In this document: one piece after another, positions 6,790 through 35,146 of the stretch
How the letters are laid out: every line of letters starts with the position of its first letter
How positions within the stretch are numbered: the stretch's first letter is position 1
Source of the DNA: Antedon mediterranea
Taxonomy: Eukaryota > Animalia > Echinodermata
NCBI RefSeq assembly: GCF_964355755.1
Contig: NC_092678.1
Coordinates: 9,918,352-9,982,351, forward strand
Reading direction: 5' to 3'
Length of the DNA: 64,000 bases
Translations under genes and position numbers: made by a program
Notes under the pieces: generated by a model
What the model was told of the DNA's origin: nothing
The model's database searches: none
The model's input: the letters and a program-made list of their open reading frames with translations, nothing else

Positions 6790-9700
6790 TTTTTCGAAAA
6801 TCACAAAATGGTCTAAAACGTCTCCAAATGCGATTTGAAGATATTCTGAGCACTTTGGTGTTTTTATGTTAAAAAGTTTTTTCGAAAATCACAAAATGGT
6901 CTAAAACGTCTCCAAATGCGATTTGAAGATATTCTGAGCACTTTGGTGTTTTTATGTTAAAAAGTTTTTTCGAAAATCACAAAATGGTCTAAAACGTCTC
7001 CAAATGCGATTTGAAGCTATTCTGTACACTTTGATGTTTTGTGTGAAAAAGTTTTGTCGAAATGCTCAAAATGGTCTAAAACGTTTTTAAAACGATATTA
7101 AGCTATTTTGTGCTCTTTGATGTTTTTGTGTAACCAAGTTTTATCGAAATGAACAAAATGGTCTAAAACGTCTCCAAATGCGATTTGAAGCTTTTCCAAG
7201 CACTTTGCTGTTTTTATGTTAACAAGCTTTTTCGAAAATCACAAAATGGTCTAAAACGTCTCCAAATGCGATTTGAAGATATTCTGAGCACTTTGGTGTT
7301 TTTATGTTAAAAAGTTTTTTCGAAAATCACAAAATGGTCTAAAACGTCTCCAAATGCGATTTGAAGATATTCTGAGCACTTTGGTGTTTTTATGTTAAAA
7401 AGTTTTTTCGAAAATCACAAAATGGTCTAAAACGTCTCCAAATGCGATTTGAAGCTATTCTGTACACTTTGATGTTTTGTGTGAAAAAGTTTTGTCGAAA
7501 TGCTCAAAATGGTCTAAAACGTTTTTAAAACGATATTAAGCTATTTTGTGCTCTTTGATGTTTTTGTGTAACCAAGTTTTATCGAAATGAACAAAATGGT
7601 CTAAAACGTCTCCAAATGCGATTTGAAGCTTTTCCAAGCACTTTGCTGTTTTTATGTTAACAAGTTTTTTCGAAAATCACAAAATGGTCTAAAACGTCTC
7701 AAAATGCGATTTAAAGGTATTCTGAGCACTTTGGTGTTTTTGTGTGAAAAGTTTTAACGAAATGCTCAAAATTGTCTAAAACGGTTTCTAATGTGATTTT
7801 AAGCACTTTGATGTTTTTGTAAAACCAAGTTTCATCGAAATGAACAAAATGGTCTAAATTGTCTCCAAATGCGATTTGAAGCTTTTCCAAGCACTTTGCT
7901 GTTTTTATGTTAACAAGCTTTTTCGAAAATCACAAAATGGTCTAAAACGTCTCCAAATGCGATTTGAAGATATTCTGAGCACTTTGGTGTTTTTATGTTA
8001 AAAAGTTTTTTCGAAAATCACAAAATGGTCTAAAACGTCTCCAAATGCGATTTGAAGCTCTTCTGTACACTTTGATGTTTTGTGTGAAAAAGTTTAGTCG
8101 AAATGCTCAAAATGGTCTAAAACGTTTTTAAAACGATATTAAGCTATTTTGTGCTCTTTGATGTTTTTGTGTAACCAAGTTTCATCGAAAATCACAAAAT
8201 GGTCTAAAACGTCTCCAAATGCGATTTGAAGATATTCTGAGCACTTTGGTGTTTTTATGTTAACAAGTTTTTTCGAAAATCACAAAATGGTCTAAAACGT
8301 CTCCAAATGCGATTTGAAGATATTCTGAGCACTTTGGTGTTTTTATGTTAAAAAGTTTTTTCGAAAATCACAAAATGGTCTAAAACGTCTCCAAATGCGA
8401 TTTGAAGCTATTCTATACACTTTGATGTTTTGTGTTAAAAAGTTTTGTCGAAATGCTCAAAATGGTTTAAAACGTTTTTAAAACGATATTAAGCTATTTT
8501 GTGCTCTTTGATGTTTTTGTGTAACCAAGTTTCATCGAAATGAACAAAATGGTCTAAAACGTCTCCAAATGCGATTTGAAGCTTTTCCAAGCACTTTGCT
8601 GTTTTTATGTTAACAAGTTTTTTCGAAAATCACAAAATTGTCTAAAACGTCTCAAAATGCGATTTGAAGGTATTCTGAGCACTTTGGTGTTTTTGTGTGA
8701 AAAGTTTTAACGAAAAGCTCAAAATGGTCTAAAACGGTTCAAATGTGATTTTAAGCACTTTGATGTTTTTGTACAACCAAGTTTCATCGAAATGCTCAAA
8801 ATGGTCTAAAACGTTTTTAAAACGATATTAAGCTATTTTGTGCTCTTTGATGTTTTTGCGTTACCAAGTTTTTTCGAAAATCACAAAATGGTCTAAAACG
8901 TCTCCAAATGCGATTTGAAGCTTTTCTAAGCACTTTGGTGTTTTTATGTTAACAAGTTTTTTCGAAAATCACAAAATGGTCTAAAACGTCTCAAAATGCG
9001 ATTTGAAGGTATTCTGAGCACTTTGGTGTTTTTGTGTGAAAAGTTTTAACGAAATGCTCAAAATGGTCTAAAACGGTTTCTAATTTGATTTTAACCACTT
9101 TGATGTTTTTGTGTAACCAAGTTCTTTTCGAAAATCACAAAATGGTCTAAAACGTCTCCAAATGCGATTTGAAGCTTTTCTAAGCACTTTGGTGTTTTTA
9201 TGTTAACAAGTTTTTTCGAAAATCACAAAATGGTCTAAAACGTCTCAAAATGCGATTTGAAGGTATTCTGAGCACTTTGGTGTTTTTGTGTGAAAAGTTT
9301 TAACGAAATGCTCAAAATGGTCTAAAACGGTTTCTAATGTTATTTTAACAACTTTGATGTTTTTGTGTAACCAAGTTTTTTCGAAAATCACAAAATGGTC
9401 TAAAACGTCTCCAAATGCGATTTGAAGATATTCTGAGCACTTTGGTGTTTTTATGTTAAAAAGTTTTTTCGAAAATCACAAAATGGTCTAAAACGTCTCC
9501 AAATGCGATTTGAAGATATTCTGAGCACTTTGGTGTTTTTATGTTAAAAAGTTTTTTCGAAAATCACAAAATGGTCTAAAACGTCTCCAAATGCGATTTG
9601 AAGCTATTCTGTACACTTTGATGTTTTGTGTGAAAAAGTTTTGTCGAAATGCTCAAAATGGTCTAAAACGTTTTTAAAACGATATTAAGCTATTTTGTGC

Positions 9701-30700: not shown

Positions 30701-32009
30701 CAAAATGGTCTAAAACGTCTCCAAATGCGATTTGAAGCTCTTCTGTACACTTTGATGTTTTGTGTGAAAAAGTTTTGTCGAAATGCTCAAAATGGTCTAA
30801 AACGTTTTTAAATACGAAATTAAGCTGTTTTGTGCACTTTGATGATTTGTGTGAAAAGTTTTAACGAAATGCTCAAAATAGTCTATAACGGTTTCTAATG
30901 TGATTTTAAGCACTTTGATGTTTTTGTGTAACCAAGTTTTTTCGGAAATCACAAAATGGTCTAAAACGTCTCCAAATGCGATTTGAAGCTTTTCTAAGCA
31001 CTTTGGTGTTTTTATGTTAACAAGTTTTTTCGAAAATCACAAAATTGTCTAAAACGTCTCAAAATGCGATTTGAAGGTATTCTGAGCACTTTGGTGTTTT
31101 TGTGTGAAAAAAGTTTTGTCGAAATGCTCAAAATGGTCTAAAACGTTTTTAAAACGATATTAAGCTATTTTGTGCTCTTTGATGTTTTTGTGTAACCAAG
31201 TTTTATCGAAATGAACAAAATGGTCTAAAACGTCTCCAAATGCGATTTGAAGCTTTTCCAAGCACTTTGCTGTTTTTATATTAAGTTTTTTCGAAAATCA
31301 CAAAATGGTCTAAAACGTCTCTAAATGCGATTTGAAGGTATTCTGAGCAATTTGGTGTTTTTGTGTGAAAAGTTTTAACGAAATGCTCAAAATTGTCTAA
31401 AACGGTTTCTAATGTGATTTTAAGCACTTTGATGTTTTTGTAAAACCAAGTTTCATCGAAATGCACAAAATGGTCTAAAACGTCTCCAAATGCGATTTGA
31501 AGCTATTCTGTACACTTTGATGTTTTGTGTGAAAAAAGTTTTGTCGAAATGCTCAAAATGGTCTAAAACGTTTTTAAAACGATATTAAGCTATTTTGTGC
31601 TCTTTGATGTTTTTGTGTAACCAAGTTTTATCGAAATGAACAAAATGGTCTAAAACGTCTCCAAATGCGATTTGAAGCTTTTCCAAGCACTTTGCTGTTT
31701 TTATATTAAGTTTTTTCGAAAATCACAAAATGGTCTAAAACGTCTCTAAATGCGATTTGAAGGTATTCTGAGCAATTTGGTGTTTTTGTGTGAAAAGTTT
31801 TAACGAAATGCTCAAAATTGTCTAAAACGGTTTCTAATGTGATTTTAAGCACTTTGATGTTTTTGTAAAACCAAGTTTCATCGAAATGCACAAAATGGTC
31901 TAAAACGTCTCCAAATGCGATTTGAAGCTATTCTGTACACTTTGATGTTTTGTGTGAAAAAAGTTTTGTCGAAATGCTCAAAATGGTCTAAAACGTTTTT
32001 AAAACGATA

Positions 32010-32013
32010 TTAA
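32010..32013. other. TTAA target-site duplication (left)
   Basis: GATA-TTAA-AGATCATGG. Sister repeat copies carry a single TTAA at 28213-28216 and 53751-53754. Confidence 0.95.
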
Positions 32014-32039
32014 AGATCATGGAACATGGTATTTGATGT
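32014..32039 (+). repeat. Left terminal inverted repeat, 26 bp
   Basis: AGATCATGGAACATGGTATTTGATGT is the exact reverse complement of 35121-35146. Confidence 0.97.
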
Positions 32040-32204
32040 ATAACGTTTTTTGGCTGATTTGGGTCTGAATATGTTGATTTTATTAGTACGTTTTGATAAA
32101 ATAAATTCTATAAGCGTAAATTATGAATTTTTTATGATTTACATACATCGGAGTTTATATCTCCGAAGTCGAATTTGGAAGCAGGAAATCCAAGGCGATA
32201 AATC

Positions 32205-32222
32205 GTGACGTCATAAGATGAA
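32205..32222 (+). promoter_or_regulatory. Left subterminal inverted motif containing a CRE palindrome (TGACGTCA); candidate promoter element or transposase-binding site
   Basis: GTGACGTCATAAGATGAA is the exact reverse complement of 34938-34955. It starts 191 bp from the left end and ends ~65 bp upstream of ATG 32288. Function is inferred. Confidence 0.6.
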
Positions 32223-32287
32223 CACACTGCACTGCCCTGGTCGCGACGCATCTCTCTATTGTATACAAACTGTACTGTATCGGCAAG

Positions 32288-32591
32288 ATGTAAACACGTA
32301 TTGTGTACGATCTCGACAGTTCGGAGTCTGATTTTGAAGAGGAAACTATCCATTATGAATTCGAAATTGATGAAGATGAAGGAGACGACGTTATGGATAC
32401 GCAAGAAAGTGTTATTGAATGCAATTAATTCAACCGTAGGCCTATATGAGAGCCCGATCTCACCGATTCTGAAGGCGAGGCGGACCAACGCGAAGGCGGC
32501 GAAGAACGTCGTGGGGAAATTGACCAGACCAACAATACATGGTCCTAGGCCTAGGTTTACATTTTCAATTACGGACCCAAACTTTGGAATG
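32288..32591 (+). pseudogene. Degraded acidic first exon, inverted paralogue of KolX exon 1
   Basis: ATG TAA ACA CGT ATT... gives M*TRIVYDLDSSESDFEEETIHYEFEIDEDEGD, then across frameshifts LIQP-YM-EPDLTDSEGE...FQLRTQTLEW, ending in donor TG|GTTAGT at 32592. It aligns by eye to the minus-strand exon 34908-34612 at DNA and protein level. Confidence 0.8.
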
Positions 32592-33048
32592 GTTAGTTTA
32601 CAGTCAGTTATACGAATGCATTATTATCGTGTTTTTAAACGCAATAAAAAAATTAGTAAAACTGAAGTTGTTGTGTCGATTAACTAAATAAAAGGTAGGC
32701 CTAGTAGGTAGTACTTCTTTCTAGTATAGTAGAGTAGTAGCCCTAGGTGATTAATTCGGTTTTAAAATCAGCAACACAAAGGGCCTAGGCTAGTAGTACT
32801 GTGTTGAAAGCCCCAGCATAATAGTTCAGGTGGGGAGTTGTTCTGCCCTCATAAAAATAAAGCTTGTGCACAAGCTGACTGCAATAATTTGTAAGTTGCA
32901 TGACAGATTGCACTATATTCTCTATTGATTTGAACAAAAATTGAACCATTTGAAATTTGCTTTAGAAAAGTCAAATTATAAATTATATAATCTTATTGCA
33001 CTTTTACAAATGATTTTGTTCTTACAGTACCGTATTATTATTTCGCAG

Positions 33049-33215
33049 GGTATGTGGATGACCTCATCTTGGAGGTAATGAGCATTGTTGAAGGGACAGC
33101 AGAAGATGTTGATGTTGTTGATGCGCCACCCCAACTCTGTTCAGGATTTGAACGCCCCGACAAAGAGACTGCTATTGCCAACCACTTCACAAGATTTCCA
33201 AATGTGAACAACTAA
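33049..33215 (+). pseudogene. Terminal exon of Kolobok transposase (catalytic DDE exons missing)
   Basis: After acceptor TTATTATTTCGCAG| the frame reads (G)YVDDLILEVMSIVEGTAEDVDVVDAPPQLCSGFERPDKETAIANHFTRFPNVNN*. The pattern YV..L...V...P..L...F/Y.RP.K..A...H.[ST]RF matches my recollection of Kolobok transposase C-termini. AATAAA follows at 33234. It is below the ORF-track length cut-off. Confidence 0.75.
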
Positions 33216-33601
33216 GGCAAAAATTATGCAGTAAATAAATCAGCAGCCAAAAGGTCCACTGATCAACTTCAAATAAGAAGTATAATACATACTCCAAGAA
33301 ATGAGACATTCCATCATGCTTTTTATTATAAATCATTATTTCGTTTTTTTAGTGAAAGATTAAAAGCCATTTGTTTATGTGGATACAGCGCCACAATCCA
33401 GAGCCAACAGTTTTATAAACAAAATAATCACTTGTGTGCATAATTTTTTAATAAATTGTGTCAGAGAAATGTATATTTTATTTCTATTTGATCATTTTAT
33501 TTCTATCAGATACAGTGTACAATACTTTCCTTTATGAAGTACAGTAAATAATTGTATGTGGTTAATTGTAATCTCAATACAAGTTGGTGCTAAATGTTTA
33601 C
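33216..33601. terminator. Convergent 3' UTR region with polyadenylation signals on both strands
   Basis: Lies between the stops at 33215 (+) and 33602 (-). AATAAA occurs at 33234 and 33450 (+); TTTATT occurs at 33322 and 33477 (AATAAA on -). Confidence 0.45.
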
Positions 33602-34022
33602 TCAATCCAAAAATCCAGCAAACTGGAAATCATCTTCCATACCTGGTGTTGGGAAGTGGGCTCTTATGCAGGAAACGGCACATGATGGTAAGACTACCCT
33701 TAGGTTTCGGCCCAAAAACCCCCAACACCATCTGGCAAGTTGCCGGTACGCAATATGTCTCAGAAGTTTATGTTTTGAGGCTTCAACAGGTGTGTCATAC
33801 TGTTGGCGGTAATGCAGCCATGCAATTTCCAACACATGCAAATTCAAACAGGCAGCAGTGAATCCAGGATGTTCAGTGATGCATATGTTACAGTAGGCTT
33901 CTCCGTATTGTAAATTGTCTGACCTTCCTCCAGCCTATGATTAATAAATAATAGGGCCTACTTCCTGGCAACATCGACATTCGCGATACGTGGGTAGCAT
34001 CTGGCAATGGCCACAATCACAC
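33602..34022 (-). CDS. KolX / P2X7 intracellular-domain-like coding exon 2 (core domain)
   Basis: Includes ORF-track entry 33602..33847. It extends upstream in frame through CITEHPGF, and the Cys cluster CDCGHC..ECRCC at 33961-34021 is in the same frame. In-frame stops (TAA, TAG) lie at ~33935-33943. Confidence 0.8.
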
Positions 34023-34063
34023 CTGTATTATAAAAACAAAAATATTTTGTAATAATTATTAAT

Positions 34064-34095
34064 AATATTGTAGCGCTCTAGAGCGCTACAATATT
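34064..34095. repeat. Perfect 32-bp palindrome inside the KolX intron
   Basis: AATATTGTAGCGCTCT|AGAGCGCTACAATATT. Confidence 0.9.
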
Positions 34096-34937
34096 CTGAG
34101 ATGTCACAATTTATAGGGCGCTATATTAAATATATTTAAAGTTTTAGTGATTATTAATGATTAATTTAATGTATTGTGTGTGAAATAGGAAAATAAATCT
34201 GCATCTTGGCTAGCCTTTTTAGGGGTGGGCCTATCTATCTAGGCCTACCCTAGGCCTATTTCAAACAACAAAGTGCAAATTGGTTAAATAAAATGGTCAG
34301 TCTAATAATACCGTAATGTACATTTTTGCTTTCTACGATTCAATTTAGCCTAATCTTTATTTCGTTAAAAAAGTTCAATCTAGGCCGTAGGCTTATAGAC
34401 GATAGCCGACCGTCGCCGGTGAGAGGGCTAGCCGCATGAATTGGAGTAAAGTACAGTAGGGCCTAGCCTCTATCTAGCCTAGCTAGGCCTAACTAAGCCA
34501 CAATACACACACTGGCATGACGGAAGAATATCGTAGTTATCTACTAGGGAATTGTTAATTATACAATAAAGTTATACATTAATTTTTAATAAAAGAGATA
34601 GTACTACTAACCAATTTAATAACTGGGTTTGAAGTTGAATATTCTCTGCTTGAATTGTAGGTAGGCCTAGGCCTACTAAGTGACGGTCACCGTCGCCATC
34701 TTCTGATGATGAAGAATCGTCAGAACTACAATCGGGCTCGTACATGTACGGCCGAATTAATTTCATCGACATTCCATTCAATATTTCGATTGTTAAACAA
34801 AATAGTTTCTCCTTCATTCTCCTCAGTTTCGCATTCCACTATCAATGTTTCCTCTTCTAATTCCTCTGACGAAGAACTGTCAAAATCATACGCAATACGT
34901 GTTGACATCCTAGTTTGTACAGTGGCGAAAAAGTTTC

Positions 34938-34955
34938 TTCATCTTATGACGTCAC
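34938..34955 (-). promoter_or_regulatory. Right subterminal inverted motif containing a CRE palindrome; upstream of the KolX ATG
   Basis: TTCATCTTATGACGTCAC ends 191 bp from the right end and lies ~30 bp upstream of ATG 34908 on the minus strand. An ETS-like CCGGAA is nearby at ~34968. Confidence 0.6.
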
Positions 34956-35120
34956 TATCAGAGGTTACCGGAAAATGCCGAAAAAACCCGAATAGTCGTG
35001 AACTGAGAGCAGTTGCGCGAAATAGCAGAAAACACTTTAATTATGTCTTGAAAACTTTTAATTTATTGTCTGTTTAATATCCATCAAGGAGAACAACTAT
35101 AATACTACTATTTTACATAA

Positions 35121-35146
35121 ACATCAAATACCATGTTCCATGATCT
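35121..35146 (-). repeat. Right terminal inverted repeat, 26 bp
   Basis: ACATCAAATACCATGTTCCATGATCT. Confidence 0.97.

Follow-up and report, generated by a model that had tools for sequence, protein, structure and literature searches.

A crinoid Kolobok element with KolX-type first exons on both arms: an unusual non-autonomous Kol0 structure

Introduction

How does a DNA transposon come to carry the same kind of first exon at both of its ends? The question is raised by a single element of the crinoid Antedon mediterranea, lying in a stretch of 64,000 nucleotides (contig NC_092678.1, positions 9,918,352 to 9,982,351; hereafter the window). An earlier note, made from the letters alone, had read the two arms of this element as diverged inverted paralogs at the heads of two convergent genes. 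The analysis reported here follows that reading through the anatomy of the arms, their splicing, and a set of complete relatives, and asks which course of events would leave such a structure behind.

The element and its class

Satellite DNA fills the window: an array with a unit of ~88 bp spans 1-64000 (744 copies by TRF, 74% matches), and local higher-order units occur within it, for example one of 425 bp at 31098-31992. By composition, a single interruption of the array is visible in 1-64000. This is a Kolobok element of 3,133 bp (32014-35146), which interrupts the satellite with TTAA on both flanks; the satellite register carries on across it. Its boundaries, read from the sequence, are:

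32010..32013: left TTAA target-site duplication; an empty satellite unit shows one uninterrupted TTAA
35147..35150: right TTAA target-site duplication
32014..32042, plus strand: left terminal inverted repeat, 29 bp, beginning with AG, 28/29 identical with the right end
35118..35146, minus strand: right terminal inverted repeat, 28/29 identical with the left end

The termini are AG..CT, and the inverted repeat that the earlier note had given as 26 bp is indeed perfect over that length. In run X5, one contig follows the left end as far as 32066, beyond which its sequence is unrelated; it may come from another member of the family or from the ordinary left end of a parent.

The hallmarks given for Kolobok in the available part of PMC9587614 are a TTAA duplication and 5'-RR and YY-3' termini. 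The element has the TTAA duplication, the RR..YY termini and inverted repeats of the superfamily and, as in Kol0, a KolX accessory gene with the ballast fold (PF20478, E 3.5e-13), which is a pseudogene in the element's family. Only the last exon of a transposase is in evidence; the catalytic core has been deleted, and an intact transposase, which an autonomous element would carry, is absent. Two features of KolobokP are likewise absent: there is no long direct repeat within the element, and every coding remnant belongs to KolX or the transposase, so there is no His-Me nuclease. The canonical Kol0 layout is not seen either, since the element has no THAP match and its left arm is a KolX exon 1. 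Neither arm keeps one continuous frame for a full protein. The element is a real, if unusual, non-autonomous Kol0 Kolobok structure.

The right arm is a broken KolX gene

A KolX gene of two exons, now broken, occupies the minus strand of the right arm:

34612..34908, minus strand: KolX-A exon 1, frameshifted near 34760, matching the KolX N-terminal profile at E 7e-8
34023..34611, minus strand: KolX-A intron 1, 589 nt, from an X5 joint (depth 222.8)
33602..34022, minus strand: KolX-A exon 2, with the cysteine cluster and the ballast domain (PF20478, E 3.5e-13) and with stops near 33930

The profile was built from those N-termini, 19/36, that have both anchor motifs; the 36 KolX homologs were found among 90 candidates, and the order acidic N-terminus, PYxxEP, W-C-x-C is present in 19/36. 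Both right-arm exons are broken, and among the contig gaps listed none reverses the breakage: an X4 contig is gapless over the portion of the exon 1 coding sequence that it covers, and the contigs over the stops near 33930 have a single 6-nt gap. An excess of depth over the right exon was considered as a sign of relatives and rejected; contig overlap accounts for it. Within intron 1 lies a perfect 32-bp palindrome (34064-34095), at which the contigs of three runs break.

The left arm joins a second KolX exon to a transposase remnant

The left arm reads inward on the plus strand and is composite:

32288..32591, plus strand: KolX-B exon 1 pseudogene, with an acidic N-terminus, a decayed PYxxEP motif and a phase-2 W codon at its end; contigs identical over 32306-32594
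32592..32853, plus strand: 5' part of a hybrid intron, likely KolX-B intron 1; its donor is used in X5, and a diverged relative has a similar intron start
32854..33048, plus strand: 3' part of the hybrid intron, the last intron of the transposase without its donor, from an X4 contig
33049..33215, plus strand: last exon of a probable Kol0 Kolobok transposase, 54 aa plus stop, with a phase-1 acceptor; 74% identity with the P0037 and 63% with the P0065 C-terminus

The left exon is assigned to the KolX type because it resembles the right arm and has an open relative; the KolX N-terminal profile itself does not match this decayed copy. The stop directly after its start codon, visible in the alignment of the earlier note, is present in the window but private to this copy: the contigs of all three covering runs have C at 32292. 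The earliest family-wide stop lies at 32426-32428, and the later ones are family-wide as well, because the contigs match the window over 32306-32594.

The closest matches to the transposase exon come from crinoids, P0037 from Anneissia japonica and P0065 from Antedon mediterranea. We take P0037 to be a Kolobok transposase on the strength of its motifs, weak Mutator-like Pfam matches and the layout of its relatives opposite KolX. Both gene models begin mid-protein, and the true start of the transposase in this clade is unseen. A HMMER scan with the 54-aa exon returned 24 matches, one of which (P0039) was rejected as spurious, a repeat protein; a word-index search with the same exon gave no match among 16 candidates.

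Where does the KolX-type sequence end and the transposase begin? An X4 contig of 1140 nt (depth 21.2) matches 32854-33018. Upstream of this match it has a GT donor and, before that, the end of the penultimate transposase exon, whose letters translate like the corresponding exon ends of P0037 and P0065. The junction between the KolX-type intron and the transposase intron is therefore placed at ~32853, where this contig departs from the window; the 3' limit of the KolX-B part is set by the transposase contig only. Most of the transposase is missing from the element.

The left-type exon 1 has a wider family. DNA run X4 contains three diverged relatives, at depths of 60.6, 50.1 and 37.5, and the first of these is open, among the differences listed, for 50 codons into the PYxxEP motif. 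The earlier note had predicted that a WCxCGxC exon would follow the donor at 32592. In X5 the donor is spliced to the last exon of the transposase instead; nevertheless, a single X5 contig of depth 17.5 passes at 32657 from the left-type intron into the C-terminal region of a second KolX in the sense orientation. Its 10 visible codons encode KolX-A residues, with 13/13 changes synonymous. This contig could be a cDNA template switch; together with the open relative, it argues that a separate, selected KolX-B gene exists or existed.

Symmetry of the two arms

The likeness of the arms is not confined to their exons. On each side, the inverted repeat is followed by the 18-bp CRE motif and the TACAAACT box that the earlier note had described:

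32205..32222, plus strand: left CRE-like promoter motif, 18 bp, 191 bp inside the left end; putative function, from its position and the spliced contigs downstream
34938..34955, minus strand: right CRE-like promoter motif, 18 bp, 191 bp inside the right end
32264..32271, plus strand: left TACAAACT box, from the sequence
at 34919, minus strand: right TACAAACT box, from the sequence

The name CRE is one that we assume for the 18-bp motif. The left arm was compared with the reverse-complemented right arm, with 500 dinucleotide shuffles for each segment. Similarity extends from the CRE-like motif as far as the donor of exon 1: z is 9.1 for the CRE-to-ATG segment, 14.3 for the 5' exon segment and 9.2 for the 3' exon segment, and the first 12 codons alone, which lie outside the acidic low-complexity run, give 12.5; in each case 0/500 shuffles reach the score. 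By the same shuffles, the two arms do not resemble each other in the subterminal 159 bp (z 0.8) or in the introns (z 1.6). At the protein level, the two exons score 87 against each other; the maximum in 2000 shuffles is 51, the best of the 36 other KolX proteins reaches 49 and the best of 121 transposases 53. The homology of exon 1 on both arms, as originally proposed, is thus borne out. The aligned protein motifs are alike, as the note had them, but they sit in different frames, both exons being frameshifted. The identical phase-2 donors, TG|GTTAGT on both arms, are real: both are used in X5.

Were both exons once under coding selection, as synonymous differences had suggested? Over 49 hand-anchored codons the arm-to-arm dN/dS is 0.40 (Fisher p 0.023; dS about 0.7), and third positions hold 21/41 of the differences (p 0.014). 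When one block was misframed and three motif blocks were left out of the alignment, the value was 0.58 (p 0.13); the signal, which agrees with the suggestion, is therefore modest and alignment-dependent. Many TAGGCCTA-like motifs are scattered over 32545-32800 and 34220-34680, in both introns and inside both exons, and one of them breaks the PYxxEP motif of the left arm.

Splicing, transcription and copy number

Run X5 contains two GT-AG joints that are absent from X1 and X4, one from 32591 to 33049 (depth 188.9) and one from 34612 to 34022 (depth 222.8). X5 is taken as RNA by a guess that these two joints back, and it is called RNA-like here. Because of the joints, both arms are likely transcribed inward and spliced; the contigs reveal neither the strand nor the level of transcription. 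Exon 1 of the left arm is spliced into the transposase, a possibility that the earlier note had raised, although the acceptor is that of the orphan last exon, and from its start codon the product contains only a 46-codon acidic frame. Contigs of X5 span 33048-33621 and 33592-34023 and leave no break between the last exons of the two genes; overlap of the convergent transcripts is therefore possible, and double-stranded RNA could form.

The main contigs are 29-33 times as deep as a presumed single-copy relative (X1 and X4, one sample), which suggests roughly 30 near-identical copies of the element, a rough figure inasmuch as contig depth is not a copy number. Run X7 covers the element only at 33323-33710.

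Is the left exon, then, the true beginning of the transposase? The earlier note had inferred that the transposase of this family may start with a KolX-type exon, yielding a KolX-transposase fusion protein. The X5 joint onto the last exon would fit such a protein, as would the start codon, which in the decayed copy is in frame with that exon. Yet four family-wide stops intervene in that frame, and 0/121 related transposases match the KolX N-terminal profile; among 120 listed transposase relatives (of 270 matches in all; lengths 278-888 aa), 49 carry THAP and none PF20478. With the phase-2 donor of the ancestral KolX misfitting the phase-1 transposase acceptor, and with the fusion present in none of the relatives examined, we consider this origin of the left arm highly improbable.

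Comparison with complete Kolobok elements

Complete relatives indicate which features of the element are ordinary. A scan of metagenome contigs yielded 204 KolX relatives, of which 80 loci were kept; 12 passed a two-end filter, representing about 5 families from other animals. These complete Kol0-type elements have a convergent gene layout, as in the element studied here. Each of the 12 has a THAP start on its far arm, at a distance of 219-647 bp from the end. A KolX N-terminus in the opposed orientation was found at 0/80 loci, and one in the sense orientation at 53/80. The arms of the two-ended elements are strongly similar in the first 250 bp (z 2-32); at 250-650 bp homology between arms is absent in 12/12 (z -0.9 to 0.5), as against 14.9 for the element in the window. 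In 9/12, both ends pass a test for subterminal motifs. Promoter motifs in mirror image are thus an ordinary feature of Kol0, and the one that heads both arms here, though correctly noticed, does not set this element apart. Its twin KolX exons do, and the architecture is as non-standard as the earlier note had supposed.

The inverted similarity of the first ~250 bp in complete relatives implies that ends do get copied onto each other. Could the right arm of the element have been copied long ago over its left end, by a conversion reaching into exon 1, with the two copies drifting apart since? A copy that replaced the THAP start would have been dead at once, yet the arms bear the mark of selection (dN/dS 0.40, dS about 0.7); a separate KolX-B C-terminus and the three diverged left-type relatives exist; and the two arms no longer resemble each other in their non-coding subterminal DNA (z 0.8). 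Since KolX-B evolved on under selection and has relatives of its own, this course of events is unlikely. One of the loci examined (L077, 9395-11765) is a Kolobok of 2.4 kb that has lost internal sequence; its ends are 78% similar in inverted orientation over about 240 bp, which suggests recent end-to-end copying in that element.

The ends themselves were compared across families; the table of end pairs left out loci without a conserved block, and mis-picked ends (L002 and the window row among them) were not used. KolX-side ends of sister families are 23-26/29 identical at a synonymous-codon divergence of 0.40-0.53, and left-right pairs within complete elements are 19-26/29. The two ends of the element in the window (28/29) are closer than any clearly diverged sister-family pair (26/29 at most) and closer, too, than any of these left-right pairs.

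A likely origin from two KolX-side ends

The reading that we prefer, and consider somewhat better than even, is that two sister families each contributed a KolX-side ("right") end to this non-autonomous Kol0-type Kolobok, which was afterwards copied, likely with the help of a transposase acting in trans. An element of family B would have been placed back to front inside, or just upstream of, an element of family A. A deletion would then have fused KolX-B intron 1 with the last intron of transposase A at ~32853, removing the remainder of B and most of transposase A. Two near-identical inverted ends would have been left over and accepted as a pair, and the hybrid would have multiplied to roughly 30 copies, of which one entered this satellite.

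Several observations favor this assembly. The right half of the element is canonical, with the last exon of the transposase converging on a KolX gene, and a low-depth DNA contig has the penultimate transposase exon and its donor exactly where the window switches to a KolX-type intron. The left-type exon 1 has its three diverged relatives, pointing to a separate KolX-B gene, past or present. Every two-ended element has THAP on the far arm, and no locus has an opposed KolX N-terminus. Finally, with sister-family ends as alike as 23-26/29, two right ends can form a matching pair. A relative at depth 3 in X1 takes in the right exon 1 as well as the transposase intron, and X4 has no separate contig of correspondingly low depth over the left exon 1 at 32444-32529; this is weak evidence.

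Other observations sit less easily with the assembly from two families. A whole parent element does not appear among the contigs, of which only 30 letters of each loose end are visible. It needs two events, where a parent with two KolX genes would need one deletion. Ends that are 28/29 identical would also fit a pair that had long been together on one element or was homogenized later, and the relative at depth 60.6 could include the left arm of the parent.

These reservations lead to the main competitor, in which an autonomous family had KolX-B forward, the transposase forward and KolX-A reverse within one pair of ends, and the element arose from it by nothing more than an internal deletion. 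A single deletion would yield the observed structure, the 28/29 identity of the ends would need no extra step, the promoter motif lies 191 bp inside both, and purifying selection acted on KolX-B. This layout is nonetheless found in 0/12 two-ended elements and 0/80 loci, the transposase within it would require an internal promoter, and for the low-depth relative with the transposase no matching left arm is visible (a weak point). We regard the deletion as possible but doubtful, and the lineage it presupposes as a tentative proposition: a long-lived autonomous Kolobok, likely of crinoids, with a diverged KolX paralog at each end, inward mirror-image promoters and the transposase between. End identity does not distinguish this parent from assembly out of two families. 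Of the sources that the earlier note had named as alternatives, a second KolX paralog and capture from a related family, both remain live, with capture favored.

One locus at first resembled a precedent for two KolX genes in one element and was rejected. At L007, a ballast-domain gene whose N-terminal exon is cysteine-rich (7450-8752, minus strand) adjoins a complete Kolobok on its left side and reads in the direction of the transposase. This second ballast gene is not part of the canonical 5.5-kb element, being placed beyond its left end; the cysteine-rich N-terminus of the gene is different, and it has no clear inverted ends (8/16). L007 is a weak example of adjacency.

In sum, the likeliest origin of the element is an ordinary rearrangement, with two right ends from sister families as the preferred form of it.

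Relation to known systems

Within the papers that could be searched, KolX exons on both arms of a Kolobok are not described, and the element is in that sense a previously undescribed form of non-autonomous Kol0 Kolobok, although such a family may already figure in Repbase reports or subscription papers. Because the present element encodes no full protein, its importance lies in transposon evolution and not in host function. If assembly from two sister families is correct, the element illustrates how neighboring elements can give rise to new non-autonomous families, and sister families can mobilize hybrid ends. If a parent with two KolX genes was real, it would represent a new three-gene Kolobok layout, one that the searched papers do not contain and that bears on the role of KolX, from which the P2X7 ballast domain is proposed to derive; in such a lineage, the dose or the specialization of KolX would matter for transposition.

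The nearest known system is Kol0 (Kolobok0) of the Kolobok-1_XT type, as presented in the accessible part of Kojima and Bao 2022 (PMC9587614), with which the element shares the TTAA duplication, the RR..YY termini, a probable DDE transposase, here a remnant, and a KolX gene. It differs from that type in being non-autonomous and in having a second KolX exon 1, not a THAP start, at its transposase-side end; the same part of PMC9587614 describes two proteins for Kol0 and does not mention a duplicated KolX. The right arm matches KolX and the P2X7 cytoplasmic ballast domain, PF20478, as they appear in the available parts of PMC9587614 and PMC7016195. Compared with such genes, both copies in the element are broken, and the left copy retains exon 1 only.

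The T2-MITEs of Xenopus and the full-length XKol elements, in the accessible part of PMC6004289, are, like the element, TTAA-targeting Kolobok derivatives with AG termini that are presumed to have been moved in trans; among the XKol elements listed there, the left and right ends are often imperfect. The element differs in its size of 3.1 kb, in having kept gene remnants and in its two KolX-side ends.

A pair of ends of one kind has also been made by design. Engineered piggyBac donors with symmetric LE-LE or RE-RE ends, described in the part of PMC13416829 that is available, resemble the element in this respect; they are artificial and belong to another superfamily, whereas the element is natural and appears to have spread. 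According to the same source, unmodified hyPB lost its activity on short symmetric ends. If the element does descend from two KolX-side ends, a natural transposon with such a pair has spread, and Kolobok ends would be interchangeable in a way that those of piggyBac are not for unmodified hyPB.
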